Shown in pieces: positions 670-28,573 of a stretch of 44,270 nucleotides of DNA. The DNA is from a virus, in IMG/VR virus record IMGVR_UViG_3300011443_000011, positions 1-44,270 of that record. One strand, written 5' to 3'. A program made the translations under genes and the position numbers. A model generated the notes under the pieces. The model worked only from the letters and a program-made list of their open reading frames with translations, had not been told where the DNA came from and searched no databases. Numbering within the stretch: position 1 is the first letter of the stretch; every line of letters begins with the position of its first letter.

Positions 670-1856
670 GCTTCACGAAGTTGACGTTTCACTGCTTGCA
701 GCCTGGCAAAATTCCTCGCGTCGGATTTCTCCTTCCATGCTTTCTCCGCAGCAGCTAGATCCGCTTCCAGGGCGCCCTTCGGCCCCGTTCTTGGCGGGGC
801 GGCTGTCGGCGCGCCGAGCACCTTTGGCGGTGGTGTGGCCGGCTTGGGTTTGGCCACTGGCGGTTTCGCCGCGGCCTTCATCCTGGCTTCCCTTGCCTCG
901 AGCCCCTCGACGAAGATCGCCGTCGCTGAAACCCAGTCCGGTCGGAGCCGGATTTGGGGGTAATCCGCGAGCGCCTTGCGAAATTTGGCGAATTGTGGCG
1001 AATTCCTATCGGTGAGCCAGGTGAACTCCCGGAGCGCCTCACTGGAGTGAGCTTGCTCAGCCCGGAGATATTCGCGCCGCCTGGGGAAGTGCTGCTCGAG
1101 GTCATCCTCGGTCGCTTCCTTCATCGCGCGGACCTGTTCCCCGGTAAATTCCCGGGTTGAATATCCGCCTTTACCATCGGGCACCTGCAGGACGCCACCT
1201 TCCGGGTTGCGCTCGCACCAACGTTTCAGGGTTCGGGCCTGAATCGCGGCCTGCTCGAGTTGCAGCTCGTTCCTGATCCCACTGGCGGGATCGGACTCGC
1301 TCACAACCACGGGCACTGGCGGTTCAGGCGCTGGCGCCGACTTGTACCGCTCCACTTCGGATTGGAGTTGCTGGCGCTCGGTCTCTGTGGCCTGGAGTTT
1401 GCGTTCCAGGTCGCCTTTCTGGCGAGTGAACCGCGCGATCCGCTTCTGGAGCCATTCCGGGGCGTCCTCTGGCAGGGCCAGGTCATCCTGGGCGGCCTCT
1501 CCCTCTTCTGAGGCACTCGGTTCTTCCGGGGCGGCCTCAGAAGAGGCGGTGTCTGACTTGTCGGACGCGTCTGACGTGTCTGACCCGTCGGACTTCTCGG
1601 ACTCTGCTGCTGCTTGAGAAAGAACAGTTGGACTTACCGTGCCAGTTTCGGGCGCGTCCGGCTGCTTCTGGGCGCTTGCCTTTGGCTGGCTTCGCGATTT
1701 CGGCGCAGACTTCGTCCCCGTCGCTTCGCGCTCCCGCAATTTGCGGCGCGCATACTCGAGGACCGAAGCGTTGCCTTCTGTGGGTGCCGGCGGAGTAGCA
1801 ACAGCGGGTGCTGCTGGTGGCGGGGCGCCGTCCCCCGCCGAGATTTCATCAGGCAT
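660..1856 (-). CDS. Probable scaffolding protein (398 aa, Ala/Pro/Glu/Ser-rich with a coiled-coil-like core)
   Basis: ATG at 1856. It sits immediately upstream of the capsid gene and downstream of the portal. It has low-complexity acidic N-terminal and basic C-terminal regions and a heptad-like middle (LERKLQATETERQQLQSEVERYK). The call rests on position and composition only. Confidence 0.5.
   Translation of the reverse strand: MPDEISAGDGAPPPAAPAVATPPAPTEGNASVLEYARRKLREREATGTKSAPKSRSQPKASAQKQPDAPETGTVSPTVLSQAAAESEKSDGSDTSDASDKSDTASSEAAPEEPSASEEGEAAQDDLALPEDAPEWLQKRIARFTRQKGDLERKLQATETERQQLQSEVERYKSAPAPEPPVPVVVSESDPASGIRNELQLEQAAIQARTLKRWCERNPEGGVLQVPDGKGGYSTREFTGEQVRAMKEATEDDLEQHFPRRREYLRAEQAHSSEALREFTWLTDRNSPQFAKFRKALADYPQIRLRPDWVSATAIFVEGLEAREARMKAAAKPPVAKPKPATPPPKVLGAPTAAPPRTGPKGALEADLAAAEKAWKEKSDARNFARLQAVKRQLREARV
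1551..1602. repeat. 9-bp-periodic GTCNGAC array A (6 units) inside the scaffold CDS
   Basis: GTCTGAC at 1551, GTCGGAC at 1560, GTCTGAC at 1569, GTCTGAC at 1578, GTCGGAC at 1587, CTCGGAC at 1596, with exact 9-nt spacing. It encodes SEKSDGSDTSDASDKSD. Confidence 0.9.
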
Positions 1857-2094
1857 TTCGAGGCCGTCCTGATTCCGGCGATCGCTTATTTCGCCGCGGC
1901 CCAGAACGTGAGGCCAAATGTCAACCGCAAGGCTGACACAGGTTCAGGGAGGTAAAACAAACGTTATCTGCTTCCATTCAGGTCCGTTTGAGCCAGATTG
2001 GGCCCGATTGAGTCCGATTTTGTTGAGTTAATTTGTGACTCGGTGTAGGTTTGAGGCACGGGCAGACCCCAAAAAGGCGGGAGCCCGGCGTAGA

Positions 2095-2376
2095 ATGATT
2101 GATCAAATTACGGCAGTCCGGGCGCTCAAAGAGGCCAAAATGCCCGAAGCGCAAGCTGAGGCGGTGGTTCAATTCATCAGCGATGCCACCACCGGGGAGA
2201 TCGCGACGAAGTCTGATCTGCGAGAGTTAGGGGTGCGTATCGGGGCGGACATCCAGGAAATAAAAGGTGAGCTATTCTGGCATCGATGGCTGTTAGGGGC
2301 GGTACTGGCGATGCAACTTGGGATTCTCGCTCTCATCGCAAATGTGCTGCTAAAGATCGCCGCGCTGAAACCATGA
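2095..2376 (+). CDS. DUF1640-like tail-anchored coiled-coil membrane protein (93 aa)
   Basis: ATG at 2095, preceded by GGCGGGAG. MIDQITAVRALKEAKMPEAQAEAVVQFI...ATKSDLRELGVRIGADIQEIKGEL is followed by a C-terminal TM helix (WLLGAVLAMQLGILALIANVLL). This pattern matches the DUF1640 proteins I recall. It is on the opposite strand to the surrounding structural genes and in visibly AT-richer DNA. Confidence 0.6.
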   Translation: MIDQITAVRALKEAKMPEAQAEAVVQFISDATTGEIATKSDLRELGVRIGADIQEIKGELFWHRWLLGAVLAMQLGILALIANVLLKIAALKP

Positions 2377-2744
2377 TCGCTGAACAGATGAGTACAGCGG
2401 AGATCGAGGCTTCGTTCATTGGAAGAGTCGAAGATATCTCTGGTGACTCTGCGTTCGTGAGCCTGCTCAATGAGAAGACTGGTGAGCGAATGGAAGCCAA
2501 GTGCAAGACGTCGATACTGCAAGAAAGTGGAATTGGGCTTGGGGACGAATTTCGGTGCGAGGTTCAACGCTCAAAGTCCGGGGTGAGTGCGCACCTGTTG
2601 CATTTGCTTCCGAAACCACTCAGCAAAGAACAAGTGGAGACATTCACGCCGAATTCAAAGACCGCTGGACTTTCTAGAATCAACCAACCCGCTTCAGCTC
2701 GGCCTCCTCGCAAATCCCGAATAACCGGGCCTCGATCGCCATGA
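2373..2744 (+). CDS. Hypothetical protein with possible S1/OB-like N-terminus (123 aa), coupled to the DUF1640 gene by ATGA
   Basis: ATG 2373 overlaps TGA 2374..2376. FIGRVEDISGDSAFVSLLNEKTGERMEAKC resembles the G-x-V-x-x-I-x-x-x-G-A-F-V motif of S1 domains. The last ~65 nt run antisense into the 2680..2964 gene, so the true C-terminus is uncertain. Confidence 0.4.
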   Translation: MIAEQMSTAEIEASFIGRVEDISGDSAFVSLLNEKTGERMEAKCKTSILQESGIGLGDEFRCEVQRSKSGVSAHLLHLLPKPLSKEQVETFTPNSKTAGLSRINQPASARPPRKSRITGPRSP

Positions 2745-2964
2745 TGGCATCCACGCCACCCAGGTAATGGGCCATGACGGTCCCAGCACTCATGCCGGCT
2801 GCCACCAGCGGCGCCGCGCCCGCTGAGATCAACTGTTGGCGATGATCATACAGCAGGCGTAGGATCGCACCGAAACGCGGATCGCGCGTCATTTCCCGAA
2901 GGGACGCCTCGAGTTGGTCCGGTGTCAAATCCAGGGCGACACTCTGAAGGTCGGTGAATTTCAC
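2680..2964 (-). CDS. Hypothetical protein (94 aa) downstream of portal
   Basis: GTG start at 2964, 5 nt after the portal stop. The composition looks coding. No motif recognised. Confidence 0.5.
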   Translation of the reverse strand: MKFTDLQSVALDLTPDQLEASLREMTRDPRFGAILRLLYDHRQQLISAGAAPLVAAGMSAGTVMAHYLGGVDAIMAIEARLFGICEEAELKRVG

Positions 2965-2969
2965 GAGAA

Positions 2970-5168: not shown

Positions 5169-5171
5169 AAA

Positions 5172-5213
5172 GGGAGTTATGAGTTGGAAGTTATGAGTTA
5201 GGAGTTTGGGTTC
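5172..5213. repeat. Tandem heptamer array (ATGAGTT/GGAAGTT type), copy 1
   Basis: GGGAGTT ATGAGTT GGAAGTT ATGAGTT AGGAGTT TGGGTTC. It lies between the portal ATG (5168) and the end of the upstream gene, and contains that gene's stop (5198..5200). Confidence 0.9.
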
Positions 5214-5515
5214 TTCGGCGGGTTATCGAGATCCAGATTCTCCATGTAATGGACGGACGATGAATCCCACTCAAGGTTGTCAGGCATCCGTTTGCCTTTG
5301 CCATACCGCTGACCTGGTCTGGCTTTGCAGCGCCATCGCACCATGGCCTGATCATTGCAATCTCCGGGACCATACCAGTGTCCGACGGCAAGCACTTCAC
5401 CGACAGGTCCGCCTTGCTGGTGTAAGAAACGAACACGCATCCCAACAAGTAAACCCGGAATGAATTCAGCGAGATTCGTGAATTTCTTCATCAGCGCACC
5501 TCTGATCCAGTTCAT
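5198..5515 (-). CDS. Hypothetical protein (105 aa)
   Basis: ATG at 5515. It is bracketed by the two ATGAGTT arrays. GMRVRFLHQQGGPVGEVLAV looks like a small beta-barrel (SH3/Tudor-like). No firm assignment. Confidence 0.5.
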   Translation of the reverse strand: MNWIRGALMKKFTNLAEFIPGLLVGMRVRFLHQQGGPVGEVLAVGHWYGPGDCNDQAMVRWRCKARPGQRYGKGKRMPDNLEWDSSSVHYMENLDLDNPPKNPNS

Positions 5516-5518
5516 TTT

Positions 5519-5553
5519 ATGAGTTATGAGTTGGAAGTTATGAGTTATGAGTT
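5519..5553. repeat. Tandem heptamer array (ATGAGTT/GGAAGTT type), copy 2
   Basis: ATGAGTT ATGAGTT GGAAGTT ATGAGTT ATGAGTT. It shares the 21-mer ATGAGTTGGAAGTTATGAGTT with copy 1 in the same orientation. It contains the stop of the 5545..5766 gene and ends 3 nt from ATG 5515. Confidence 0.9.
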
Positions 5554-5766
5554 GGCTTCGATGCGGAATTGGCCCACTTCACGTAGACCTGCGTAAATGG
5601 CTCCCCAAACACCTTCGGGGACCGCTTCAAATCCAATCTCTCTCGAGATTAACGCTTTCCGCCGACGCACGGCGGCCACGAGGTCTAATTCGTTGAAATG
5701 ATCCGGCATTCGTTCAATCCAGGTCAGATTGTTTCGGCCGACATCCTTGAAATGTACGTTGATCAT
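5545..5766 (-). CDS. Hypothetical protein (73 aa)
   Basis: ATG 5766 overlaps the stop of the upstream gene (ATGA). No motif recognised. Confidence 0.5.
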   Translation of the reverse strand: MINVHFKDVGRNNLTWIERMPDHFNELDLVAAVRRRKALISREIGFEAVPEGVWGAIYAGLREVGQFRIEANS

Positions 5767-5963
5767 TGGGCTGGTTTGAGGAGTTCGAGGACATCATCGC
5801 GCCAATAGCGGTGATGGCCCTTCGGGGTTTGCCGGGTCCGGATCCGGCAGGCCACGCGATACGTCCGGAGAGTGTCCTTGCCGCACCCCAGCAATTGCCG
5901 GGCTTCCTTCGGCGAAAGCCAAATCCGAAAGCCGTCAACGAAAAGCTGGAGGCGCGAGTTCAC
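5763..5963 (-). CDS. Small HTH DNA-binding protein, excisionase/MerR-like (66 aa)
   Basis: WLSPKEARQLLGCGKDTLRTYRVACRIRTRQTPKGHHRYWRDDVLELL fits the HTH_17/Xis-type pattern (HTH followed by a basic wing and R-Y/F-x-x-x-D-V). Confidence 0.55.
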   Translation of the reverse strand: MNSRLQLFVDGFRIWLSPKEARQLLGCGKDTLRTYRVACRIRTRQTPKGHHRYWRDDVLELLKPAQ

Positions 5964-6151
5964 TTCCCCTCCTTGTGCCTCTTCTCTTTCAATGTCCGGC
6001 CGCAGTACGGGCAGAAGTTCATTCCGTTTGCCACGGGGGAATCCTCTATCACTATGAACTTCTCATTGCACCCGGTGTCCCAGTTGCCGTCCTCGTCCTC
6101 GGTCCAGGTACAGGGTCTTTTGCTGTATTTGATGGCCGCGTCCCAGTTCAT
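5960..6151 (-). CDS. Zinc-ribbon protein (63 aa)
   Basis: Two Cys pairs (C-x13-C ... CPYC). ATGA overlaps at both ends. Confidence 0.5.
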   Translation of the reverse strand: MNWDAAIKYSKRPCTWTEDEDGNWDTGCNEKFIVIEDSPVANGMNFCPYCGRTLKEKRHKEGK

Positions 6152-9100
6152 TGCAATGACAACTGGCGGTTCGAACCATCAAACGCGCAGAACTCAATTT
6201 CCAATGGGCCTGAGCATGGGACTGTATAAGGCCAGCGCAGCGCCGTTCCATTCACAGTGATCATGTCCACACCGGCACATGCCAGCTTGCAATCCACTCG
6301 TTCGATTGAGACTGCTGTACCAGGGCCGATCGGCTTAGGATCAGGATTGGGATTGGGACCAGGATCGGGATTCCCACCGGCTACTCGCTCGAATTGAATC
6401 GTGCTGGATGATTGATTGCCTGCTGGATCGCGTGCCTCGACCTTGACGATATGAACACCCGGATTCCTGAATTCCAAGAAGGTCCCCGTCTGCCATTTGC
6501 CGACCTGTCCGTTGATGGTCAGACGGTATTGGATGTCGTTGTAGAACTTACGGCTGGTGTACTTCTGATCCGCCGCCAACCATCGAATGCGTGTGACGGG
6601 TCGAGGGTCTATCCCTGCCCTGGGATATTCACACCATACGATGTGGGGCGCCTCGGTATCGGGTACAACTGCGGCTGATCCCAACGCCTGCGCGATGGTG
6701 TTCCAATTCGGATTATTGATCAGGGACGGCTTGCCGCCATAAACGCCCGCCTGCGCGGGATTACCCCAGATGTCATAGGTCTCGCTCGTCACGCTCGTTG
6801 AATACCGGTGCCGGTCGAGTGCCCGGACAAAGAGCCAATCACCAATCCGCCAGGCCTCGCTGTGAGCTGGTGTCTGGATCTTCGCCCGCGGTCCGTCACT
6901 GATCGCCCACGCAAGTGTTGAATTAGCGCAACCCAGTGGCTTCAGGGTGTCCTGTAAATCGACCTCCGTGTACTGCGCCGAGTAACCCGTGGGATCGCCG
7001 TAATGATGGTACGAGCGATTATCGTAGAAGATGTGTTTGGCACCTCCGCCGCCGATTGTTTGCACGACATTCCACGCCTGCAGCTCGACCGCTTCATTCC
7101 ATGATTTCATGAAGTCCTCGCTGTCCCTGAATCGCAGCAACGGAATCCCGTTGTCCCTCCACGATCCACGTGCGCCGTACCACGCAGAGAATTGATAAAC
7201 GCCCGCTTCGGTGTTCCAGATTTCAGGCCCGAGATTCAGCGAGACGAATTGCTGCGAGCGGAATGAAGCATCCTCATACAAATGAACCGACAGCGCCTTG
7301 ATTCGGGACTGAGTTTCCGGGGGCAACAAGTTCCAGATTTGCGCCAGTTCGTTGGTCTGATTCACACCGGACCCTGCGATCAGATTCGCAGACTCAGGCA
7401 TCAGGGCGACTGCCTGGCGAACCATCTCGCAGTAGAAGTTATAGGTCTGCCCAGTGGGCTTCGGGATTGACCCGTCCAGGTTGGGCTCATTGGCAACTTC
7501 CCACCAATCCACCTTGCCCGCGTAATGCTTGGCGGTCTCGGATGCGTAACTCGCGAAGCGCTCGATAGCAGGCGAATTGACATACAAGGGTGAGACCTGG
7601 ATTGCGCTGCCTCGCGGGCCCGTGACGGTTCCCCCTGGATTGAAAGTCCCGGTAACATTGGTCATCTGCAGGGCCGGGCCTGTGATGCTTTGAGGAGACG
7701 CGACCCAACTGATGTAACCTGTGCCCGTTGCATGTGAGACCCGTTCGCCAGGCGCGAAGGTCCCCAGCACATTGGTCATTGTCAGATACCAGCGATTAGC
7801 CCAGGCCGCCCTCGACTGATACAGCGTCCCGAGCATCGTCTGGCCGGATTGCAGCGCCATGTCCACATCGGTTTCCTCCCATACCCACACACCATCAGAC
7901 GGCTCTATGAAGGCCCACCGGAACAGCGCAGCCGGTGATAGCGCCCGGTTCCAGCCATAAACCCTGGACGCCATCTGGTTGTTGTACCACCACTGCTCAG
8001 CATGAGCGCCCATGTAGGGATTGGGCTTCTCGTTGCGCAACCGGCAGAAGTACAGCTCGGCTTCCACTCCGTTGGTCAGCCATGCGACTGCTCTCAATGG
8101 TCCATAGGGACAATTTGATGGCAGGGTGAATTGCCCTGGCACAGCCATCGATCCGGAATGAATCCGGCGAAAGTCCGCATCGTACACCTCCACATTCGCC
8201 TGGCCTGGACTTCCGAAGACATCGAGGACGGGGACGCCTTGATATCGTCCGCCAAGCGCTGTGTTCTCAAGTCCGATCTCGACCGGGACATTCGTGCCTC
8301 GCGCGGGACCTTCGTCCAGCCGGACATCGTCCACAAACATCGTGCAAGGATTCGGGATGCCGATGTTCGGGAACTTGATGTTCACATAGTATTGAGCGGG
8401 CGCCGGATAACCCCAGAGCACGCCACTCACTGAGATCGTCTGCCAGTTGGTGGTCAGGGTCACCTGGGCGCTCGTGTAGTTGGTCTGCGGCGCCAGGTTG
8501 TAGCCCTCAGGCACGGTCACTGCGGGCAGGATCGATCCCTGGATCTTGCCGCCTGCCGGTTCGCTGCGCGCGCGGAAGCTGAGTGTGTGGCGTTTGTTGG
8601 AAGCTGGATAGAACCCTTGAGACAACAACTCCGGACCGCCTGCTGCCGTCGAGGTGCATGGCTGCGGCCTGTATTTGATCTCATGACCAGTCCACAGGTC
8701 TCGCATCGCCATGTATTTGGACTCGTTGCTGTAAAAACTCCACCCACCTGTGCCGACCTCGAATGATCCGTTATACAAGTAATTACCAACCCTCGGCGCT
8801 GATGTGTCCTCGACGCGATTGGTGGGCCAGAACTGCGCGTAATCATCCATCGTGACGATGATGTTGGTTCGCGTCGTCAGGTAGATGGCGACGATCGATC
8901 CAGGCGAAATCACCGTTGGCTTGGACAACTTGAGGTGCAGGACGTTGGTCGCCACTGGGATGCTCATCGATGACAGGATGGTCCAGTATTGGTTCTCGTC
9001 CCGGTCGTTGGCATATCCACGGCCGACAGACCCGCCAGCATCCGCCTCGATCAACAGGTTGGTGGCGCTGCCATACGCCATCACTTTGACGTAGGGGTAA

Positions 9101-9330
9101 AACAATCCCGCCGGGAAATCATTGGTGATCCAGGCCTCGCCGGTTAATGCCGACGAATTCTGAATCCGCGCGATGCCGCTCGGGCACGTGGCCTCCCCGG
9201 TCCACCAGAACCAGCCAGGACTATCCCCGATCCCAGTCTCGGTTGAATAAATGATGATGTCGGTGTGATCGCTCGTCTGCGCCAGGGCGACCGACAAACA
9301 AAAAAGGGCAGCTAAAACAAGTTGTTTCAT
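6148..9330 (-). CDS. Secreted multidomain glycoside hydrolase, clan GH-A type, with CBM4_9-like and Ig-like domains (1060 aa)
   Basis: N-terminal Sec signal MKQLVLAALFCLSVALA/QTS. NGSFEVGTGGW...MFVDDVRLDE (aa ~185-340) fits the CBM4_9 pattern. KVDWWEVANEPN has the acid/base Glu at 7488..7486, and EIWNTEAGV has the nucleophile Glu at 7209..7207, 93 aa later, which is the spacing typical of (beta/alpha)8 clan GH-A enzymes. VKVEARDPAGNQSS is Ig-like. A Pro-rich linker (GGNPDPGPNPNPDPKP) precedes a Cys-containing C-terminal domain. Confidence 0.7.
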   Translation of the reverse strand: MKQLVLAALFCLSVALAQTSDHTDIIIYSTETGIGDSPGWFWWTGEATCPSGIARIQNSSALTGEAWITNDFPAGLFYPYVKVMAYGSATNLLIEADAGGSVGRGYANDRDENQYWTILSSMSIPVATNVLHLKLSKPTVISPGSIVAIYLTTRTNIIVTMDDYAQFWPTNRVEDTSAPRVGNYLYNGSFEVGTGGWSFYSNESKYMAMRDLWTGHEIKYRPQPCTSTAAGGPELLSQGFYPASNKRHTLSFRARSEPAGGKIQGSILPAVTVPEGYNLAPQTNYTSAQVTLTTNWQTISVSGVLWGYPAPAQYYVNIKFPNIGIPNPCTMFVDDVRLDEGPARGTNVPVEIGLENTALGGRYQGVPVLDVFGSPGQANVEVYDADFRRIHSGSMAVPGQFTLPSNCPYGPLRAVAWLTNGVEAELYFCRLRNEKPNPYMGAHAEQWWYNNQMASRVYGWNRALSPAALFRWAFIEPSDGVWVWEETDVDMALQSGQTMLGTLYQSRAAWANRWYLTMTNVLGTFAPGERVSHATGTGYISWVASPQSITGPALQMTNVTGTFNPGGTVTGPRGSAIQVSPLYVNSPAIERFASYASETAKHYAGKVDWWEVANEPNLDGSIPKPTGQTYNFYCEMVRQAVALMPESANLIAGSGVNQTNELAQIWNLLPPETQSRIKALSVHLYEDASFRSQQFVSLNLGPEIWNTEAGVYQFSAWYGARGSWRDNGIPLLRFRDSEDFMKSWNEAVELQAWNVVQTIGGGGAKHIFYDNRSYHHYGDPTGYSAQYTEVDLQDTLKPLGCANSTLAWAISDGPRAKIQTPAHSEAWRIGDWLFVRALDRHRYSTSVTSETYDIWGNPAQAGVYGGKPSLINNPNWNTIAQALGSAAVVPDTEAPHIVWCEYPRAGIDPRPVTRIRWLAADQKYTSRKFYNDIQYRLTINGQVGKWQTGTFLEFRNPGVHIVKVEARDPAGNQSSSTIQFERVAGGNPDPGPNPNPDPKPIGPGTAVSIERVDCKLACAGVDMITVNGTALRWPYTVPCSGPLEIEFCAFDGSNRQLSLQ

Positions 9331-9536
9331 AGTCGTTTCTGGACGGATTCCATAATCGGTACGTACCTAATCCCGCCATCCTCTGCCAGAGGCGTCCCTG
9401 GGGCGTATTGCATCCAGCCTCTGCCAATCGCTTTGATGCACAGGGGTCGCGCGTCGGGCATTCGCGGCAACACTGGCAGTTTGGCAAGTTCCGCCCGTTC
9501 TTCGTCGGTTATGTATTTCCTGCTGCTGTAGCTCAT
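9327..9536 (-). CDS. Hypothetical protein (69 aa)
   Basis: ATG at 9536, 3 nt after the TerL stop. ATGA overlap with the hydrolase gene. Confidence 0.45.
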   Translation of the reverse strand: MSYSSRKYITDEERAELAKLPVLPRMPDARPLCIKAIGRGWMQYAPGTPLAEDGGIRYVPIMESVQKRL

Positions 9537-9539
9537 AAA

Positions 9540-11567
9540 TCAATACGTTCCTCCTCCCGTAACCAACAGCGACTCGGCGCTGATGTATTGAAGGTCAGCC
9601 AGGGCCATATACCGGACCAGATCGGCAAAATCCTTGCAGCCACCCTTGGGACCTCCCCGCGCGGTATAGGTCTGGAACATCCAGATCACTTGCTCGCACG
9701 TCACGCAAACGAAGAGCTTCGGCTCGTTGAGGCCAGGCACCATGCCGTTGGGGTCCAAGGGATCCCAGTCGAGCAGCTCGTTGACCTCGGCCAGGCCTGT
9801 GCCGATCTGCGCATTCTCGCCAGTCCCGACCTGGCGTCCGCCGTAGGCTGGCTCGAGGATCATCGGTTCGATCACCACGCCACCGGGTGCCACGATGCGC
9901 TCGGCGAACAGGTCCACGACGGTCTTGGCCCCCTGCTCCTGGGCGTGCTCGCTCCCGGCGGCGCGAGGGTCCACGCGGCGGCTGAGTACCTCCTCGCGTA
10001 TCGGTTCGGCCAGGCCAGAGCGAACCTCGCGGACATCTTCTGGATCCCAGCGGTGGGACCGGTCCGACTTGTCAGACTGGTCTGACCTGTTGGACTTCCT
10101 GGCACTGGCCATCAGCCTGTCCGACAGCCTGCGCCTATAGGGATCCTTCTCCGCCCAGTCGCCCTGGGCATTGATCTGGAGGGTCAGACTTTCTTCCGCC
10201 AGGAACAGCTCCTTGTAGCCGGTGACACCCATGCCGTCGCTTTGTTGGGCCATGCCAGCGCGCCCATCCGGTTCCTCCTCTCGATCGCTTGGCACGGCCC
10301 AATCACCAAAGCGGGCTTTGTCCGGCCAATCCCGGTAGATGAAATGGTAGCCGCGCGGATCGACTCGGACCCAGAGCGTCGCCCAGCGTCGGGCGCCAGC
10401 GGGATCGGTGAACATATAGTTCGTCCCCTCGGCCGGCAGATGCTCGGGCTTGATGATGTGCACCGCGCCGAACTTCGGAAACGCCCGGTGCCGGATATCG
10501 ATCGCCCAGCCGTATGAATCCCGCATGATAACAGCCTCAGGCTTCGAGCGGATCTCAGCGGCGTGATCCGCGTAGCGGGCGAAGGGATTGTCCTTGCGAA
10601 AGAAGAAAACCGCGCGCGTCCGCGGACGGCTGCATTCGACCACGGTGGGCATGTGGCCCGGTTTGCAGCCAGGGACAAAAACGCGGTCGTGCGGCAGCAG
10701 CTCGGCGGCCTCCTGTTGGAGGACAGAAGGGCTCCCGAGCATCTCCTTGATAGTGGCTGTGATCCCTTCCAAGGGGGAGAAGGTCCACAGGCCGCACGAC
10801 TGCAAATCCTGGCTTCGGGTTTCGGCGGTCTCGAGCCATAGGAGCGGCATATTCTCATCCGCCCACCAGCCCATGTTCGGCAATGGAATTTCCCGGTCCT
10901 CCGACACTTTGAGCGCGACCTGCTTGTGGCTCTCGGCACCCAGTTTCCACCCCTGGTAATGCTGCGGATCCTGAATGAAGCTCAGAAATTGAATGATGGT
11001 GGGCGGCTCAGTGGGCATCACCAGGAGATTGTCCGAGAACCCGCGTCCCTCGGCGTACTTGAGCTTGAACTCGCGGGATTCCTTGGCGTTGAGATTCACT
11101 CGCCAGGCCCGCGGCAGATATTTCCAGATCGCGGGCTGCTGGATGTTCTGTGAGGATTTCTCGGTCTCACCCAGTACCCAGCGGCGCCCGCCAGGATACG
11201 CCAGGCACGACTTGACGAAGAGCCAGGCGGCGCACTCGGTCTTTGAGGCCCGCTTGCCGCCGCCATTGTAAACCGTGCGCGCGCGCTGGAACTGCTCGAC
11301 CAGCGTGTACCACGGCTCGAGGACGAATCCGTGGGTGAGCGGTTCGCCGGTTCGTTCGTCGGCCGCCTCAACCGCCGCCCGGTGCATCGCGAAGGCATGG
11401 GAGACGTGATGCAACCCGTACTGGAGCGGCTGACGCATGGCCGCGGCAATTTCCTGAGCCGTGGGCAGGCGCAACAGCGGATGCGGCGGGGGCGCATGTT
11501 CCACGAGGAACTTTCGCGCCTGCTCCAGGAGCCAGGCGTCGGTAGTGACTGGAGGGGCGGCGGTCAT
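9540..11567 (-). CDS. terL: Terminase large subunit (675 aa)
   Basis: Deviant Walker A VYNGGGKRASKTE. The C-terminal nuclease-type region has FTDPAGARRWATLWVRVD. The start is set at ATG 11567 (MTAAPPVTTDAWLLEQ...), which overlaps the upstream stop as ATGA. The 92-aa Arg/Pro-rich extension in the ORF track overlaps the upstream gene and is discarded. Confidence 0.85.
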   Translation of the reverse strand: MTAAPPVTTDAWLLEQARKFLVEHAPPPHPLLRLPTAQEIAAAMRQPLQYGLHHVSHAFAMHRAAVEAADERTGEPLTHGFVLEPWYTLVEQFQRARTVYNGGGKRASKTECAAWLFVKSCLAYPGGRRWVLGETEKSSQNIQQPAIWKYLPRAWRVNLNAKESREFKLKYAEGRGFSDNLLVMPTEPPTIIQFLSFIQDPQHYQGWKLGAESHKQVALKVSEDREIPLPNMGWWADENMPLLWLETAETRSQDLQSCGLWTFSPLEGITATIKEMLGSPSVLQQEAAELLPHDRVFVPGCKPGHMPTVVECSRPRTRAVFFFRKDNPFARYADHAAEIRSKPEAVIMRDSYGWAIDIRHRAFPKFGAVHIIKPEHLPAEGTNYMFTDPAGARRWATLWVRVDPRGYHFIYRDWPDKARFGDWAVPSDREEEPDGRAGMAQQSDGMGVTGYKELFLAEESLTLQINAQGDWAEKDPYRRRLSDRLMASARKSNRSDQSDKSDRSHRWDPEDVREVRSGLAEPIREEVLSRRVDPRAAGSEHAQEQGAKTVVDLFAERIVAPGGVVIEPMILEPAYGGRQVGTGENAQIGTGLAEVNELLDWDPLDPNGMVPGLNEPKLFVCVTCEQVIWMFQTYTARGGPKGGCKDFADLVRYMALADLQYISAESLLVTGGGTY
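10053..10095. repeat. 9-bp-periodic GTCNGAC array B (5 units) inside terL
   Basis: GTGGGAC at 10053, GTCCGAC at 10062, GTCAGAC at 10071, GTCTGAC at 10080, GTTGGAC at 10089. It encodes KSNRSDQSDKSDRSH. Confidence 0.9.
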
Positions 11568-12358
11568 TCTGGCGGTTTCTCTTTGTGCGCGGCAAACCAC
11601 TCGAACTGCTTCGCCCAGGAACCGCGGGCGAGTTCGATGTTCTCGTAGATTGCCTTGTGGGCCCCGAGAATATCGAAGTCGAGCGATGGAGCGATCAGGT
11701 CGGCGTAGGTGGCACAGTTCAGGTGATCGAAGCTCTCGATCTGGGCTTGCGTGAATTCCTGCCCGCCGAAGGCGTGCCAGGCCATCGCCAGGGTGTCGTA
11801 GAAGTGATGGGTGACGGCGCCGTTCTTGCGCTCGGGCTGCCATTGCTGAAGCACGGATTCGAGTTGGGGCTCAAAGGGCTCCTGGGGGAAGCGACCGCGA
11901 TATTTCTCCTCGGATTGACTGAAGGCGACCGGGTCAATCCGCATCAGGCAGGTGTGGAGCCGTTCGCGGTACTGGGTGAGGGTCCACGGCTCGAAGAAAC
12001 TGGGGACACGCACTCCCGCCAGCGCGGAACCATCCGGGCGATGCTCGAATCGCCTCCAAAACACAATATCGGTATCGCAAATCCAGAAAGGTTCCTCCTT
12101 CATCGCGATCATGTCCCTGACCCATAAATCATGGGTGGACATGAAATACTCATCATACACCTCAGCTCCCACTGCTACAGCAGCCCTGGAGATTTCCTCC
12201 TGGCAACAGGCGTTGTCCCCAGAGAAGCAAGCATAAACCGGCGCATCCGGAAACCCCACCCGCAGGGTGCGAAACACCAGGGTAGCGGCCGGCAGCAATT
12301 CCGGCTTGCGGCAGGTCACCAGGATATGGACGGGCTCGGCACTCATCAAAATAGCCAC
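11564..12358 (-). CDS. Hypothetical protein with GT-A-like DxD motif (260-264 aa) in the position usually held by terS
   Basis: A beta-strand start (PVHILVTC) followed ~85 aa later by FWICDTDIVFW (DxD) suggests a nucleotide-diphospho-sugar-transferase-like fold. The start is GTG 12358 or, more likely, ATG 12346 (TGATG junction with the small TM ORF). Confidence 0.55.
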   Translation of the reverse strand: MAILMSAEPVHILVTCRKPELLPAATLVFRTLRVGFPDAPVYACFSGDNACCQEEISRAAVAVGAEVYDEYFMSTHDLWVRDMIAMKEEPFWICDTDIVFWRRFEHRPDGSALAGVRVPSFFEPWTLTQYRERLHTCLMRIDPVAFSQSEEKYRGRFPQEPFEPQLESVLQQWQPERKNGAVTHHFYDTLAMAWHAFGGQEFTQAQIESFDHLNCATYADLIAPSLDFDILGAHKAIYENIELARGSWAKQFEWFAAHKEKPPE

Positions 12359-13218: not shown

Positions 13219-14742
13219 TCATAATTCGCTTTCTGCCTCGGCCTCGAGTTCTGCCTCCTGGTTGATCGCCGTGACCCGCCGGCCAGCCTCCACCGCCCCG
13301 GTGTTAGCGTGGCGATCCAGAAACCGGAAGGTCGGCCGGTGAAAGGTCAGCTCCACCCCGCCCGTGGGGCCGTTGCGCTGCTTCACCATCTCGAGGTTGA
13401 CCAGCCAGGTCTCTTCCCTGGCTTCCCTGGCTTCGGGGCTCTCTGATTCGTCCGACGGGTCGGACTTGTCTGACTTGTCGGACCGCCGATCGCGGTAAAG
13501 GATCCCGATGTTGTCCGCCATCTGCTCGAGGTAACCGCTCTCGCGGAGGTCGCTCTTCATTGGGCGGCGCTTCTTGCTCTTGGCCATTTCGCGCTGCCCT
13601 TCCCGATTGAGTTGGGAGAGCACCAGGACTGGCACGTCGAGCGTGAGAGCAAGCCAGCGGCAGGCGCTCATCAGCAGTTTGCCCTCGAGCTTCATGTCGC
13701 CGCGGGCCTCGGGCGCGTAGCATTCGTGAAGGTGATCGAGCATCAGGATCCGGCAGCCGAATTGCTTCACCAGGCGCCGGCCGCGGACCCGGATGTTGAG
13801 CGGGGTCAATTCGCCTCGGTCATCGATGTAGATCGGGGCGGGTGTTAGGCGTCCCGCGCTGCGCACGAGCGCTTGCAGGTCCAGATCGCTCGCGTAGCCG
13901 GAATGGACTTTCTTGCCGTTGACGCGGCCCTCGATGCAGAGCAGGCGCATGGTCAATTCGTTGCGGCCGCTCTCGGCGCTCAGGATGCCCACGGGCGCGC
14001 CCTGGTTGACGGCGATGTGATCCGCGATGTTCAGCATGAGGCTGGTCTTACCCACGCTCGATTCGCCACCGAGCAGGGTGAGTTCGCGGGGTTTATAGCC
14101 TGTGGTGAGTTTGTTGTAGTAGCCCCAGGGGGATTGCAAGCCAGTGGCAAGACCGTTGGTCCGGTGTTCGGTCGATAACTCGATTGTCCTCAGCACCCCG
14201 GGAATGAGATCGCCGATCCGGCTGGGGCCGTGGTTCGCGCTGGCGCCCTGGTCGCTGAGCGCGATGACCTCGCCCTCGAATTGGGTGATCAGTTCCCCGG
14301 CATCGGTGGCGGTGGCGGCCCGGCCCAGGTGGGCGCCGGCTATTTGAAGGCTTTGGCGGATCCGCCATTTGCCCGCGACCTCGTCCAGGTAAAGCCCGAT
14401 CTGGGCGGGGCACGGGCTGGCATCTTCTAACTCCGAGACGTAGCTAATGCCGCCGACGTCATCGAGCTGGCGCAGATCGCGCAACCGGGTGACGAGCAGG
14501 ACGAGGTCCGGCCGGCGATTCTCGGCGTCGAGCGCGAGCATCGCCTGGTAAATGGTCCGGTGCTTGAGATCGTAGAACTGGCAGCCGGCCTCGGTGGCAT
14601 CGGTGCAGGCCAGCTTCTCCTGGGCCAGGCCCATGGCGGTCTCGAAGGCGTCGCCGGGATCGCCCGCGGCCTGGAGCAGGCTGCCTAACACCCCGCGTTC
14701 GGCTTCGGGCGCGTGGGGGGGGAGGTTGGATTCGGGGTTCAT
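13219..14742 (-). CDS. dnaB: Replicative DNA helicase, DnaB family (507 aa)
   Basis: N-terminal LPPHAPEAERGVLGSLLQ is the DnaB signature. Walker A is GGESSVGKTSLMLNIA, Walker B is ILMLDHL, and SQLNRE is present. The start is set at ATG 14742 (ATGA with the loader stop). Confidence 0.9.
   Translation of the reverse strand: MNPESNLPPHAPEAERGVLGSLLQAAGDPGDAFETAMGLAQEKLACTDATEAGCQFYDLKHRTIYQAMLALDAENRRPDLVLLVTRLRDLRQLDDVGGISYVSELEDASPCPAQIGLYLDEVAGKWRIRQSLQIAGAHLGRAATATDAGELITQFEGEVIALSDQGASANHGPSRIGDLIPGVLRTIELSTEHRTNGLATGLQSPWGYYNKLTTGYKPRELTLLGGESSVGKTSLMLNIADHIAVNQGAPVGILSAESGRNELTMRLLCIEGRVNGKKVHSGYASDLDLQALVRSAGRLTPAPIYIDDRGELTPLNIRVRGRRLVKQFGCRILMLDHLHECYAPEARGDMKLEGKLLMSACRWLALTLDVPVLVLSQLNREGQREMAKSKKRRPMKSDLRESGYLEQMADNIGILYRDRRSDKSDKSDPSDESESPEAREAREETWLVNLEMVKQRNGPTGGVELTFHRPTFRFLDRHANTGAVEAGRRVTAINQEAELEAEAESEL
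13441..13483. repeat. 9-bp-periodic GTCNGAC array C (5 units) inside dnaB
   Basis: CTCTGAT at 13441, GTCCGAC at 13450, GTCGGAC at 13459, GTCTGAC at 13468, GTCGGAC at 13477. It encodes RRSDKSDKSDPSDESE, an insertion-like acidic loop near the helicase C-terminus. Confidence 0.9.
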
Positions 14743-15464
14743 TTCCGGAAGCATTCCCAGTCGCATTCGATGATGCCGCCGCCCTGCCGGGCCCGGTTGA
14801 CGATCGGTTCGCCCAGGAACTCGGCGAAACCGGCGTGGCTGTCGTTCGAGATGAGGACGGTGTCGCGTTTGGCATGGTACCGGTCGCTGACGAGTTCGCG
14901 CAGGAATCGTGAGCTGGCGTCGCTCTCGGCGCTGGCCGAGCAGTCGTCGAACACGAGCAGGCTCGGCGCCGCGAATTGGTCGATGACCTCGCGCCTCGAC
15001 CGGGCCGAGGCCGGTCTCAAGCCCTCTTCCATCGCCAGGCAGGCCCGGTAAAGGCTCGAGTACCGGGCCGATCGCAGACGCCAGATGGCCAGCAGCATCA
15101 GGCCGGCCGCGAGCACGGTCTTGCCGGAGCCATGGTACCCCGCCAGCCCGACGACGACGCCGGTGTCCCGCTCGGCTCGTCCCTCAATCCGGAGCCGCGC
15201 CACGTTGTAGGCGGCGTCCCACGCGGCGTGGCCGCTGGGATTGGGATCGAGATACGCCGGTTTCCCTAACACTTTGGAGCGGAATCTCCACCACTCCTTC
15301 GCCGAGCGCGGAATATCCGCCTCGAAGTGAAGGTCCATCCGTTTCATGCGTCGTTGCGAGCGCGCAAATTCCTCGTCGGAGATGACGCGCGGCGGACCGC
15401 CCCAGGGATTCTGCTCGGGCCGATACACGGCGGGGGATTCATCGCCTGAAAGGTCTCTATTCAT
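14739..15464 (-). CDS. DnaC/IstB-like AAA+ helicase loader (241 aa)
   Basis: Walker A GYHGSGKTVLAAG and Walker B LLVFDD. It sits immediately upstream of dnaB. The start is set at ATG 15464, after the stop of the upstream gene (15472). Confidence 0.75.
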   Translation of the reverse strand: MNRDLSGDESPAVYRPEQNPWGGPPRVISDEEFARSQRRMKRMDLHFEADIPRSAKEWWRFRSKVLGKPAYLDPNPSGHAAWDAAYNVARLRIEGRAERDTGVVVGLAGYHGSGKTVLAAGLMLLAIWRLRSARYSSLYRACLAMEEGLRPASARSRREVIDQFAAPSLLVFDDCSASAESDASSRFLRELVSDRYHAKRDTVLISNDSHAGFAEFLGEPIVNRARQGGGIIECDWECFRK

Positions 15465-15471
15465 GCGTGTG

Positions 15472-16356
15472 TTAGTTGAGTTTTTTGAGCTCGGATTTCC
15501 GCTGCATTTCATGCGCAAACGCCTTGGACCCACCCCTCACGCCAGGAGGGGCTTTGCCATGTCCGCCCGACGCAGGCGTGCGTTCGCGGATCTTGGCCAG
15601 GACGAAGGAGGCGTGCCGCCGCAGCCGGGTGCGGTCGATGCCCTTCCATCGGTCGGCCGGGGTCTTGCGCTCCTGGTTGTCCCACTCCGCCTCGAGCTGG
15701 ACCAGGGTCATGCCCTCCATCTGGGCCGCGGCCTGCCACTCCTGGTGGCTCGGCCATTCGGCGTAGCTGTGGTGTCCGTTTTGATACTCGGACTCCGCAG
15801 AATCCGGAGAGTCTGAGCGAGCTTCAGAAACGGGCGCGGGCTTGGAGGTCGCCAAGGCTGCGGTGGCGCCTCCCACCGTACCCTGTGGTACCACTACCCG
15901 CGCCTTTTCTTCTTCTGAAGTTGAATCTGAATATGAAGGTGAAATATGAAGAGGGTTGTTACCGGGGCGTTTCAAAGGCGTTACAGAATCAGTTGTTAAA
16001 TCAGGAGTTACCTCATCGTTACGCCGGTGTTTCTCAACTCTTTGTTTCGTGCTAACACGTTGAGCGTGTTCGCGTTGCATCCTTCTATTGATGACAGTTA
16101 CTTGAGTGTTACATCGGAGAATGTTTGCGGTGTCTGTTGCTTCCAATTCCTTTAAAGCGGAACGCATTTGGGGGGAAGAACAGCGAGCCAGACGGGCAAG
16201 TTGCGATTCACTTCCTGTTATAAATCCGGTACGGGACATGTCGTGCATGCGGCAAAGCAGATCGATCCAGATACCACGAGTGGCCGGTGAGCACTTCGAT
16301 AAAGCGCCGTCTCTGAGCCAGTCCCCGTAGTAGAGTTGGAAGAAGGGCAGCTTCAC
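15472..16356 (-). CDS. DUF1376 (YdaU-like) replication protein
   Basis: KLPFFQLYYGDWLRDGALSKCSPATRGIWIDLLCRMH is the DUF1376 N-terminal signature. The start is uncertain. GTG 16356 is proposed (MKLPFFQLYY...) because that signature normally sits at the N-terminus and the longer ORF overlaps 16403..16624. Confidence 0.65.
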   Translation of the reverse strand: MKLPFFQLYYGDWLRDGALSKCSPATRGIWIDLLCRMHDMSRTGFITGSESQLARLARCSSPQMRSALKELEATDTANILRCNTQVTVINRRMQREHAQRVSTKQRVEKHRRNDEVTPDLTTDSVTPLKRPGNNPLHISPSYSDSTSEEEKARVVVPQGTVGGATAALATSKPAPVSEARSDSPDSAESEYQNGHHSYAEWPSHQEWQAAAQMEGMTLVQLEAEWDNQERKTPADRWKGIDRTRLRRHASFVLAKIRERTPASGGHGKAPPGVRGGSKAFAHEMQRKSELKKLN

Positions 16357-16402
16357 CTTTTGTGTATCGTGTGCGATGGGATCCAGGACATCGATAAAGC
16401 CC

Positions 16403-16624
16403 CTAACCGATTGTGGCTGCGCTGACCGGGTCGCCGTTGCGGAAGGCGGCGTAACGACTGGCAACAGTGCTTTTCTTTGGGCGTTTTTTGAGCGCCAGCG
16501 AAACAGGGCCAAGCCTGGGCGGTGGCAGGTTGGCATCGTTGATGATGATCGTCTCGAGGGCACTGGCCTGGCGGTGCAGTTGCGCGATCTCCTGCTTCAG
16601 TTGGTTGATTAATTGAGGACTCAT
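16403..16624 (-). CDS. Hypothetical protein (73 aa), N-terminal coiled coil
   Basis: MSPQLINQLKQEIAQLHRQASALE.... It is an alternative to the N-terminal extension of the DUF1376 ORF. Confidence 0.4.
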   Translation of the reverse strand: MSPQLINQLKQEIAQLHRQASALETIIINDANLPPPRLGPVSLALKKRPKKSTVASRYAAFRNGDPVSAATIG

Positions 16625-19390: not shown

Positions 19391-19397
19391 ACCTCCG

Positions 19398-20833: not shown

Positions 20834-20893
20834 AATCAGTTGTTCAGTGTATTGTTCAATCAGTTGTTTATAAACGCCAATTTAGCGCCATGA

Positions 20894-21097: not shown

Positions 21098-21122
21098 GAC
21101 GGTTCGAGTCCGTCCCGGGGCA
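21098..21122 (+). other. tRNA 3' fragment (T arm plus 3' acceptor strand): probable attP core
   Basis: GACGG TTCGAGT CCGTC CCGGGGC A has a canonical T stem and GTTCGAGTC-type T loop, a 7-nt acceptor strand and a discriminator. No matching 5' acceptor strand (GCCCCGG) or D arm lies upstream, so it is not a complete tRNA. Confidence 0.6.
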
Positions 21123-21140
21123 CTTCTAGATCAACGAGTT

Positions 21141-27794: not shown

Positions 27795-27812
27795 ATAACG
27801 ATGGGTTAGAGA

Positions 27813-28244
27813 CTAGTGGGGATTTCCTTGTTCATCGTGGTTGTCGCGCCAGGTATGGCGGCGCAGCGTTGGAGAGACTTTGCGCATGTGCTCGTAGCCC
27901 CCGCAGATTGCCGCAACCAGGCAGCACATCTCGAGTCCGCAAAATCGCAGGATGTCCGCCATCTGCCTTTCGCTGGCTTCACTGGATTTCTCCCAGGCCA
28001 CGCTGTCGGCGTACGCATTCGTGATGATGATGATGAGCGGGCGCAAATGGCTCCAATGCGCCAGGAAGAACGGGTGGGTGTAGAGATCCACCGCCTGGGC
28101 CAGGATCGCCAGAAAGCTTTCGGGCCCGCGCTGCTCGTCGATTTGATCGTCAATGTCATGGCAATATTTCGCCCATTTCTGGAGCCAATCCGCCGCGATC
28201 GCGTCGCCTTTAGTGACCTCTCCGATGGCAAGTTCAAACGTCAA
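27813..28244 (-). CDS. DDxxD-motif helical protein, paralog 1 (143 aa from TTG 28244; 160 aa if 28295)
   Basis: It is collinear with 29791..30279: HDIDDQID vs LDDLEDGD, HPFFLAHWSHLRPL vs NPFFAQHAAYLIPL, and CLVAAICGGYEHMRKVSPTLR vs CLVAGLVGGYQHRRTVSPRIR. TTG 28244 overlaps the upstream TGA (TTGA). Confidence 0.55.
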   Translation of the reverse strand: MTFELAIGEVTKGDAIAADWLQKWAKYCHDIDDQIDEQRGPESFLAILAQAVDLYTHPFFLAHWSHLRPLIIIITNAYADSVAWEKSSEASERQMADILRFCGLEMCCLVAAICGGYEHMRKVSPTLRRHTWRDNHDEQGNPH

Positions 28245-28573
28245 GCCAGTTGCAAGTCGTGCGCGGCGCTGGTCACCACAAAGCCAGGCAGCCAATGCTC
28301 AATAGTCAGAAACGCAGCCCGGCTATGCGCGCTGGCCCCGTGGATCTGGCCGGCCCGGACCCGCATCGGACGGATCGGACCGATCGGACCAGTCGGACGG
28401 CTGCGGTCGTCCCGGCGCCAGGTCATCCGGCCCCACAACGGGATGAGATAGGCGTCCAAGTGCCGGTGGCGGTGGTCCGGGATCTCTGCCCCGCAAGGCG
28501 CGAGCCAGAGTTCCGCGCGCCAGCGACCCAGTCGCAACAGCGGGATGCCAGTGCAATGGAAAACGTGGTTCAA
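28241..28573 (-). CDS. Small cupin-like protein (110 aa) carrying repeat array D
   Basis: PDHRHRHLDAYLIPLWGRM...VRAGQIHGASAHSRAAFLTIEHW suggests a His-rich beta-barrel. ATGA/TTGA coupling at both ends supports this frame. Confidence 0.5.
   Translation of the reverse strand: MNHVFHCTGIPLLRLGRWRAELWLAPCGAEIPDHRHRHLDAYLIPLWGRMTWRRDDRSRPTGPIGPIRPMRVRAGQIHGASAHSRAAFLTIEHWLPGFVVTSAAHDLQLA
28354..28398. repeat. 9-bp-periodic (A/G)TCGGAC array D inside the cupin-like CDS, read in a different frame
   Basis: CCCGGAC at 28354, ATCGGAC at 28365, 28374 and 28383, GTCGGAC at 28392. It is translated as PTGPIGPIRPM, not SD. Confidence 0.85.

Follow-up and report, generated by a model that had tools for sequence, protein, structure and literature searches.

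Palindromic GTCNGAC arrays embedded in frame in coding loops of a temperate phage genome: candidate protein-binding sites

Introduction

Several phages carry DNA sites inside coding sequence, including the lambda ori iterons in gene O, the P1 pac hexamers in pacA, the L5 'stoperators' and the dispersed centromere repeats of N15. Among the operators of ribbon-helix-helix (RHH) proteins are the 8-bp met boxes of MetJ, (AGACGTCT)n, the 7-bp heptads of omega and the iterons of ParR/ParG. At the protein level, the Ser-Asp regions of the staphylococcal Sdr/Clf proteins are built on an 18-bp DNA repeat. Here, we describe arrays of the palindromic heptamer GTCNGAC that recur at exact 9-nt spacing inside genes of IMG/VR virus record IMGVR_UViG_3300011443_000011. 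The whole stretch analysed (positions 1 to 44,270; hereafter the window) comprises nearly the complete 44.3-kb genome of a temperate phage (public record, 44,288 nt).

The FadR operator, aaCTGGTCnGACC(T/A)Gtt, and the LldR operator, AAnTGGTCnGACCAnTT, are bound by dimeric winged helix-turn-helix proteins of the GntR family (PMC9329746, PMC10272880). Low-complexity regions of prokaryotic and phage proteins have also been described (PMC6821194). An initial annotation, made from the letters of the window alone, had proposed that arrays in four unrelated genes, named scaffold, terL, dnaB and cupin-like, represent an element acting at the level of DNA.

Results

Four loci carry 9-nt periodic arrays

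The window contains 18 copies of the heptamer GTCNGAC against 12.2 +/- 3.7 expected, a total that is not unusual. Its distribution is what stands out, with 12 of the 18 sites falling in three exact 9-nt runs that start at 1551 (five units), 10062 (three units) and 13450 (four units). When the core was relaxed to TCNGAC, chains of at least three units at this spacing were found only at 1552 (six), 10063 (three), 13451 (four) and 28366 (four). The existence of the arrays was confirmed using first-order Markov simulations, in which 0 of 200 sequences contained a chain of at least three units, against four such chains in the window, and the mean number of chains of at least two was 0.055. Moreover, a motif-blind scan for lag-9 self-similarity recovered exactly the same four loci and no others, in agreement with Tandem Repeats Finder, and self-similarity scanning of the window gave no further tandem structures of 9, 12, 15 or 18 nt. 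The coordinates are collected in Table 1.

Table 1. Positions of the arrays, their host genes and other repeats and genes of the window
Feature	Position	Strand	Description
Array 1	1551..1602	-	strict GTCNGAC at 1551, 1560, 1569, 1578, 1587; degenerate CTCGGAC at 1596
Array 2	10053..10095	-	strict units at 10062, 10071, 10080; one-mismatch flanks GTGGGAC (10053) and GTTGGAC (10089)
Array 3	13441..13483	-	strict units at 13450, 13459, 13468, 13477; degenerate CTCTGAT (13441)
Array 4	28365..28398	-	ATCGGAC x3 and GTCGGAC x1, 9-nt spacing
Host gene 1, scaffold-like	660..1856	-	398 aa, Ala/Pro/Glu-rich, directly upstream of SU10-type major capsid gene
Host gene 2, large terminase TerL	9540..11567	-	675 aa (P0001), identity by fold
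Host gene 3, DnaB replicative helicase	13219..14766	-	Pfam 2e-54; 507 aa in public record
Host gene 4, conserved small protein	28241..28573	-	110 aa; Cupin_2 match sub-threshold (E=0.086)
Second 9-bp tandem repeat, unrelated	13413..13434	-	GAAGCCAGG, 2.4 copies, read EAREAR; adjoins array 3 in the same DnaB loop
7-nt tandem repeats	5173-5206; 5517-5553; 29793-29817; 34032-34062; 34076-34106; 41664-41684; 42746-42778; 43705-43740; ~583-610		G-poor, 3-5 copies
Inverted heptad pair	42747-42778 / 42814-42845		32-nt arms, 94% complementary, 35 nt between
Inverted heptad pair	34878-34901 / 34942-34965		24-nt arms, 88% complementary
Further inverted heptad repeat	34158-34193
12-bp tandem repeats	15914-15950; 15987-16010; 20834-20868		AT-rich; the first two inside the DnaD-like loader gene
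DnaD-like loader gene	15472..16563
Cargo gene stretch	5198-9536		between TerL and portal-like gene; encodes 1060-aa protein
PHROG 21390 paralogues	27813-28295; 29791-30279		function unknown

The repeats run head-to-tail and in frame in all four genes. At loci 1–3 the unit consists of the 7-bp palindrome and a 2-bp spacer, repeated three to six times, and on the coding strand it reads xxG-TCN-GAC, that is x-Ser-Asp. The minus-strand codons of array 1 are GAG-TCC-GAG, AAG-TCC-GAC, GGG-TCA-GAC, ACG-TCA-GAC, GCG-TCC-GAC and AAG-TCA-GAC (ESE KSD GSD TSD ASD KSD); array 2 encodes KSN RSD QSD KSD RSH and array 3 encodes RSD KSD KSD PSD ESE. Two isolated GTCNGAC sites lie near array 2, at 10119 and 10183. 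The Ser-Asp translations quoted in the initial annotation (SEKSDGSDTSDASDKSD, KSNRSDQSDKSDRSH and RSDKSDKSDPSDESE) were correct, on the minus strand. Its description of the TerL and DnaB arrays needs correcting, as their flanking units are degenerate. A common 'polarity' that it ascribed to the arrays is meaningless at loci 1–3, since GTCNGAC is its own reverse complement.

All three of these arrays occupy tolerant positions, either variable or low-confidence loops or a low-complexity segment, in genes expected to be essential for phage growth. Folding of the whole arrays 1–3 gave predicted imperfect hairpins of -20 to -22 kcal/mol, with z scores against shuffled sequences of -1.6, -1.2 and -1.9 (+0.45 at locus 4), a marginal gain at most. 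RNA structure was rejected as the main explanation, because folding barely beats the shuffles and an Rfam search of the arrays gave no match. A BLAST search of one array against cultured phages returned trivial matches of 18-21 nt only. A diversity-generating retroelement was also rejected: no reverse transcriptase was found in the scanned open reading frames (ORFs), the four loci are dispersed without a template copy, and the A of GAC is the same in every unit. Integrase arm sites, replication-origin iterons, DnaA boxes and VSP-type repair drive were set aside on the grounds that the arrays lie far from the integrase gene, that a better origin candidate is present and that the motif is not enriched genome-wide.

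Silent codon positions are fixed in arrays 1–3

The level of the constraint was evaluated using codon statistics, with 20 confident genes of the window as the baseline. In these genes 49% of the Asp codons are GAC, 38% of the Ser codons are AGY, and G is the least frequent base before TCN codons (18%). The arrays aside, there are 46 Ser-Asp dipeptides, of which only 11 are written TCN-GAC and 14 follow a G. Against this background, all 12 core array units read G-TCN-GAC, with C at 12/12 Asp wobbles and G at 12/12 preceding wobbles (against 18-30%), and AGY codons are never used in the arrays. Given the amino acids, every x codon would close in G with a probability of 1.7e-4, and every Asp codon would be GAC with one of 1.9e-4. 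Their product is 3e-8 for independent units; the probability is about 2e-3 when each array contributes only one event (an estimate from codon usage). The Ser wobble is free over the 12 units (A5, C4, G2, T1), and eight states occur at the first two bases of x. Thus none of the six bases of the palindrome arms varies, although two of them occupy codon positions at which the protein would allow change, and the centre and spacer look randomised. Neither Asp usage as a function of the following base nor the base preceding TCN, both of which were computed, fits this pattern, and codon usage or context was rejected as its explanation. Common descent of the units fails to explain the fixed wobbles, since the neighbouring free sites look saturated.

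As a control, viral contigs were scanned without bias for TCNGAY at 9-nt spacing. Arrays of the type (x-S-D)n proved common and are written in many codon versions. Heterogeneous ones usually vary at the wobble positions of both Asp and the codon before it, except for near-homogeneous arrays in AT-rich genomes; in GC-rich contigs, 0 of roughly 14 arrays were fully strict, by reading of the list.

These arrays bear on a purely protein-level account, in which Ser-Asp-x segments serve as acidic flexible linkers, possibly as phospho-acceptors or metal-binding sites, and the palindrome follows from codon choice and common descent. In its favour, all three heterogeneous arrays use the Ser-Asp frame, Ser and Asp are invariant and x varies, the loops that were replaced were already acidic (see below), and (x-S-D)n is common in viral proteins in many codon versions. 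A linker selected as peptide would be expected to keep its amino acids and vary its synonymous codons, yet the Asp and preceding wobbles are fixed. Moreover, the relatives of the phage carry no equivalent Ser-Asp loops; these relatives were taken from IMG/VR and JGI metagenomes, with TerL 73-84% identical and about 120 kb of related sequence sampled. We consider this account improbable. The idea of a DNA-level element, as opposed to a protein motif, has thus withstood the two findings that the initial annotation named as able to overturn it, namely equivalent loops in homologues and a motif frequency explained by Ser-Asp codon usage. Together with the silent codon positions among the fixed bases, this points to a constraint on the nucleic acid, specifically on the palindrome arms, with the Ser-Asp-x peptide as a tolerated by-product.

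The bases GTC and GAC are invariant and dyad-symmetric, the positions N and NN, which would be non-contact bases, are free, and the register is fixed at 9 bp. Since fixed dyad bases, a free centre and spacer, a fixed register and several sites form the classical signature of sites for a dimer, the reading that we rank first, with a confidence somewhat short of even, is that loci 1–3 are arrays of protein-binding sites with dyad symmetry, set within coding loops that tolerate them. Each palindrome would be the site of a dimeric, sequence-specific DNA-binding protein of phage or host origin, and a run in 9-bp register would load a cooperative array of this protein. Its role might be that of an intragenic roadblock or operator of a temperate phage, or of a packaging- or partition-type platform. 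The placement of such sites in coding loops may reflect the near-absence of non-coding DNA from the genome, and the Ser-Asp frame may have been chosen because the other frames give Val-Arg/Gly/stop-x or x-(Pro/Gln/Arg/Leu)-Thr.

Host loops of arrays 1–3 and their counterparts in relatives

The gene names proposed initially fared unequally. DnaB was confirmed by Pfam. Direct Pfam and PDB sequence searches with TerL gave no matches, but its AlphaFold model (mean predicted local distance difference test [pLDDT] score 85.8) retrieved large terminases as the first 33 Foldseek matches, and the modelled fold confirmed the 675-aa product as the large terminase. A 767-aa ORF (9540-11843) was rejected as TerL, as its 92-residue, Arg-rich 5' extension is spurious and overlaps an upstream 264-aa gene; the start in the public gene call and in homologues is 11567. 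The 398-aa protein has no family match, and it may be called scaffold-like from its position upstream of the capsid gene and its composition; for the name cupin there is a sub-threshold Pfam match.

In TerL, array 2 falls in a loop predicted with low confidence (pLDDT 62-71, residues ~491-510) between two helices, immediately before the nuclease-domain motif VDPRAAG. The length of this loop varies across the family. Compared with L002, L003 and most other relatives, the loop has 8 additional residues, and none of the ten near relatives that were aligned has one as long, as seen from ARKSNRSDQSDKSDRSHRW in the window against ARKSRPA--------PGRW. In DnaB, array 3 is part of the loop that connects the YRD and KQRNGPTG strands; this loop is about 17 aa longer than that of Thermus DnaB (2q6t). 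The acidic loop NEDDKKSGEEDEQE of the relative L003 is here replaced by SDKSDKSDPSDESE of equal length. Array 1 belongs to a low-complexity, Ala/Pro/Glu/Ser-rich segment at the N-terminus of the scaffold-like protein, and shows no clear length change against relatives; at this position L003 has a degenerate x-(P/S/G)-(D/E) period (E-P-E, K-P-D, Q-S-E, Q-G-D, P-S-E) without the palindrome in its DNA. The suggestion that the Ser-Asp segments are insertions is therefore borne out in TerL, the only clear case of plain insertion among arrays 1–3 on these alignments, and not in DnaB or the scaffold-like gene, where existing acidic loops look as though they had been rewritten into the motif.

In the sampled relatives, no chain of at least three units was found in the TerL, DnaB or scaffold gene, and the about 120 kb contained no lag-9 array other than a homologue of locus 4 in L136. 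By sequence comparison, arrays 1–3 are lineage-specific. Distant relatives have a different tandem array upstream of DnaB, of 6/12-nt period (GAATCG/GAAGTCGGAATCGG...), at 5030-5096 in L006, 5164-5230 in L008 and 15901-15967 in L134; it would be Glu-Ser-rich if in frame, and its unit is other than GTCNGAC.

A neutral in-frame minisatellite would account for part of this record. Here, 9-bp units expand by slippage or template switching, stabilised by pairing of the self-complementary GTC and GAC arms of different units; as units with damaged arms drop out, the arms stay uniform (molecular drive), the centre and spacer drift, and purifying selection retains only tolerant loops and the harmless Ser-Asp frame, with no function for the organism. 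The unit is a multiple of three and the arrays are confined to variable loops, units at the array edges are degenerate, whole arrays fold into predicted imperfect hairpins, and absence from relatives is expected of a dispensable element. The genome is in addition generally rich in short tandem repeats, such as the 7-bp leader arrays and the EAREAR repeat. However, folding is only marginally better than that of shuffles, the window has no other 9-, 12-, 15- or 18-bp arrays that would indicate a general slippage phenotype, and the DnaB array has the length of the ancestral loop. Slippage of whole units should also homogenise the centre and spacer, leaving near-identical units or even divergence at all free positions, yet both look saturated and the wobbles are fixed. 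As to copy number, TerL differs from relatives (+8 aa) and DnaB and scaffold show no clear change, in a comparison based on the single genome of the lineage in the collections. We regard the minisatellite as unlikely, while placing it directly after the binding-site reading among explanations of the arrays.

Strict arrays cluster in unrelated viral contigs

A scan of IMG/VR for three strict units returned at least 118 stretches. Among the matches listed, about half are homogeneous Gly-Pro-Thr collagen-like repeats and a minority are heterogeneous strict arrays; none of the contigs with heterogeneous strict arrays among these matches is related to the window. Six strict arrays lie within 6.6 kb of L053 (IMGVR_UViG_3300031949_000778), at 693-1060 and 5555-6026, four in L120 (481, 1290, 4763 and 9108), three in L091 (1840, 4269 and 4684) and three in one 37-kb contig. 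The arrays of L053, L120 and L091 are strict and heterogeneous, of the GTCNGACNN type. Loci fetched on the strength of a single strict array contained 28 further relaxed arrays; of these, 18 were strict as well, as were 80 of their 106 units, and in several multi-array contigs every lag-9 array is of the strict type. This clustering in particular unrelated contigs points to a motif-specific and genome-specific cause, and is not predicted by the minisatellite. Adjacent identical units in L091, L055 and L010 do suggest recent duplication, as the minisatellite would have it.

As side observations, the arrays of L091 lie at gene boundaries beside other 9-bp arrays, and in L120 one array belongs to a probable scaffold gene that precedes the capsid gene, as in the window.

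The reading frame of the foreign arrays bears again on the protein-linker account. The arrays of L053 occupy three codon phases, and two of them, in the N-terminal region of a PHROG-confirmed portal protein, read x-x-Thr, with the centre base giving Gln, Arg, Leu or Pro, which argues against a peptide motif. In L055 and L120 the frames supported by homology are again Ser-Asp, in line with a linker. Frame calling by third-position GC (GC3) phase was unreliable on other contigs and miscalled the window's own locus 1; a self-trained codon model called the window correctly and left few foreign arrays under strict filters. Frame independence of strict arrays across genomes is thus only indicated, by L053.

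Footprints of an enzyme with a 9-bp stagger offer another account. The Tn10 target NGCTNAGCN has the same architecture as N-GTCNGAC-N, and fill-in and rejoining after transposon excision or nuclease cleavage at the latter would duplicate 9 bp in frame and recreate the target, with arrays growing at hot spots of genomes that meet the enzyme. The unit is exactly 9 bp with symmetric 3-bp half-sites, only units with intact arms would stay substrates, and in-frame growth, motif specificity, clustering by genome and absence from relatives would all be explained. On the other hand, scans of the window found no transposase or matching nuclease, only a tyrosine integrase. Duplication predicts identical neighbours and the window has no identical neighbouring units, the DnaB array brought no gain in length, and the target preference is hypothetical. 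This account is very improbable.

Locus 4 is a different object

The initial annotation had pooled four like loci, which fits loci 1–3 and does not fit the fourth. There, three of the four units are ATCGGAC, and the proposed extent of 28354..28398 includes a CCCGGAC at 28354 that is out of register (11 nt). In the true frame the codons are CGT-CCG-ACT, GGT-CCG-ATC, GGT-CCG-ATC and CGT-CCG-ATG (RPT GPI GPI RPM). This 110-aa frame is 60-72% identical and free of stops in three relatives, and the overlapping Ser-Asp frame contains stops in two of the three (L134 and L135). Locus 4 shows no length change against relatives and appears ancestral, being shared with L136, the one of the three that retains a GTCNGAY array there (GTCAGAC, GTCAGAT, GTCCGAC); in it the centre base alters the amino acid (Pro to Gln) and the arms are unchanged. 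In L135, GGTCC alone is retained. Synonymous conservation in the array is not clearly higher than in the remaining gene. On sequence comparison, locus 4 is a tripeptide repeat of greater age, read in a different frame and sharing part of the core. It could be an ancestral member of the system of arrays 1–3; the likeness of its core could equally be coincidence, since GGTCCGACN is also the commonest collagen-like unit in phages.

Coincidence might be extended to all loci, as three independent low-complexity expansions from the same Ser-Asp seed and an unrelated Gly-Pro-x repeat that shares GTCCGA through GGTCCGACN. The most frequent 9-bp tandem units of viral contigs include x-S-D and G-P-T, each with GTCCGAC in it, the window was chosen because it looked unusual, and locus 4 differs in frame, age and unit. 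Nevertheless, the core is common to all four lag-9 arrays while relatives have none in these genes, the codon statistics are opposed, and strict multi-array contigs recur elsewhere, at a rate that scans suggest is far above the Poisson expectation, among the matches listed. We hold this to be the least probable of the explanations.

Genome setting and other repeats

Almost all genes of the window, including the four array hosts, are on the minus strand. The genome encodes a tyrosine integrase, a DnaD-like loader, a DnaC/IstB-like loader and DnaB for replication, RadC, a RyR-domain protein and an LPD38 giant protein, and its SU10-type capsid protein gene is divided between the window ends. Its TerL is unique in the protein collection, and a metagenome scan, a protein search and an exact-protein look-up for closer relatives returned this genome alone. 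The probable host phylum is Verrucomicrobiota, because the terminase relatives are mostly in genome bins of Verrucomicrobiota and other members of the PVC group.

The stretch between TerL and the portal-like gene spans 4.4 kb, against 0.5-1.7 kb in relatives. The glycoside-hydrolase-like product of this stretch carries a signal peptide and the motif WWEVANEP; no relative has a homologue, so that the gene represents lineage-specific cargo. This secreted protein was rejected as a trans-acting factor for the arrays: it is the only large lineage-specific gene near them and is not a DNA binder. Two PHROG 21390 paralogues flank the region of the cupin-like gene, and relatives also have two copies.

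Many late or structural genes have one of the 7-nt tandem repeats directly against the start codon. Read on the mRNA strand, the repeat units are AACTCAT/AACTCCT, CACACCT, GACACCT and NACACCT, which resemble the 3' end of 16S rRNA (CACCUCC) and not its complement. Relatives have heptads with other units at equivalent positions (ACTCATC x4 at 9978 in L136; CTCTCAA x3 at 11993 in L135), and the heptads may be a translational-leader or late-gene regulatory device. Their inverted pairs could form large hairpins or divergent sites. By analogy with lambda O, the 12-bp repeats of the DnaD-like loader gene are plausibly a replication origin embedded in the initiator gene.

Discussion

The codon statistics led us to prefer arrays of protein-binding sites at loci 1–3, and several observations weigh against this preference. 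Pfam and PHROG scans of about 40 ORFs of the window for a cognate protein gave only weak helix-turn-helix matches and no GntR protein. The sites are absent from TerL, DnaB and scaffold genes of all sampled relatives, with only locus 4 shared with L136; as relatives with 81-84% identical TerL do without arrays, any function would be recent and dispensable. Outside the arrays GTCNGAC occurs at 6 sites against about 12 expected, so that it is under-represented if anything, and known operators do not usually consist of 7-bp palindromes with their centres 9 bp apart. The evidence comes from 12 units of one genome, in a window picked for its regular look, and from surveys confined to the matches listed; statistically, the signature at the DNA level is solid. 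Moreover, because the homology-supported frames in L055 and L120 are Ser-Asp, a protein-level component stays alive. The four mechanisms listed in the initial annotation (a protein-binding array, a recombination or packaging signal, a tolerated minisatellite, a protein motif) rank as candidates.

A broader proposal is that (GTCNGAC-NN)n arrays form an undescribed class of phage DNA element, namely binding platforms in coding loops, in the frame that gives a harmless Ser-Asp-x, which evolved repeatedly in unrelated phages and serve a phage or host factor, for example as intragenic roadblocks for a repressor or as sites of packaging or partition; we view this as rather doubtful. No description of such an element was found, a full-text search for the motif returning operators of the FadR and LldR type only. 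The combination of an in-frame coding repeat with a DNA site inside an ORF would be new, each kind being known already.

If the constraint truly acts on DNA, the arrays would be a clean natural case of dual coding, in which a regulatory or structural signal is laid over essential genes in tolerated loops and a tolerated frame, and would provide a handle for a new DNA-binding factor. Some Ser-Asp low-complexity loops of phage proteins would then be by-products of DNA signals, which is a warning for annotators, and a poorly known group of Verrucomicrobiota-type temperate phages would be added to the systems available for studying such signals. Should the arrays instead be palindromic minisatellites that perpetuate themselves, they would illustrate molecular drive shaping protein loops, a matter of narrower interest.

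Comparison with known systems

Among described systems, the sites of lambda, P1, L5 and N15 share with arrays 1–3 that short repeats lie inside ORFs, often at flexible linkers, several per genome and with constraint on silent positions. They differ in being 13-19 bp long or GATC-based, at least 10 bp apart, bound by known proteins and conserved within their group, whereas the window has a 7-bp palindrome in 9-bp register and its relatives lack the arrays. RHH operators come close in another respect: 2-10 very short, partly palindromic units stand head-to-tail, one dimer binds per unit, and the spacing is below one helical turn. However, they are located in promoters and centromeres with periods of 7, 8 or 11 bp, unlike the arrays in ORFs described here, and the window yielded no recognisable RHH gene.

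The FadR and LldR operators have the identical central GTCNGAC with a free middle base, and one unit of array 2, TGGTCTGACC at 10078-10087, matches 10 bases of the box. These operators are 17 bp long with conserved flanks, and single or paired, in contrast to the free flanks and 9-bp tiling of the arrays. A FadR/GntR operator identity, which would entail the 17-bp palindrome with flanks TGGTCNGACCA, was rejected on account of the variable flanks, the tiling and the failure to find a GntR domain in the window.

At the protein level, the Sdr/Clf regions and the low-complexity regions of prokaryotic and phage proteins resemble the arrays as in-frame, Ser/Asp-rich disordered segments that arise from a short DNA repeat and whose lengths are multiples of its unit. 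The Sdr/Clf regions consist of dipeptides, extend over hundreds of residues of surface proteins and show normal codon variation, whereas arrays 1–3 encode 3-6 tripeptides in cytoplasmic phage enzymes with fixed silent positions. Finally, the collagen-like Gly-Pro-Thr repeats of phage tail fibres, (GGTCCGACN)n, have the 9-bp period and the GTCCGAC core, and locus 4 (GPIGPI) resembles this class. Those repeats are homogeneous and long, belong to fibre proteins, keep the G-X-Y frame and always have C at the centre; loci 1–3 read x-S-D instead, and at locus 4 Gly is present in two of the four units.

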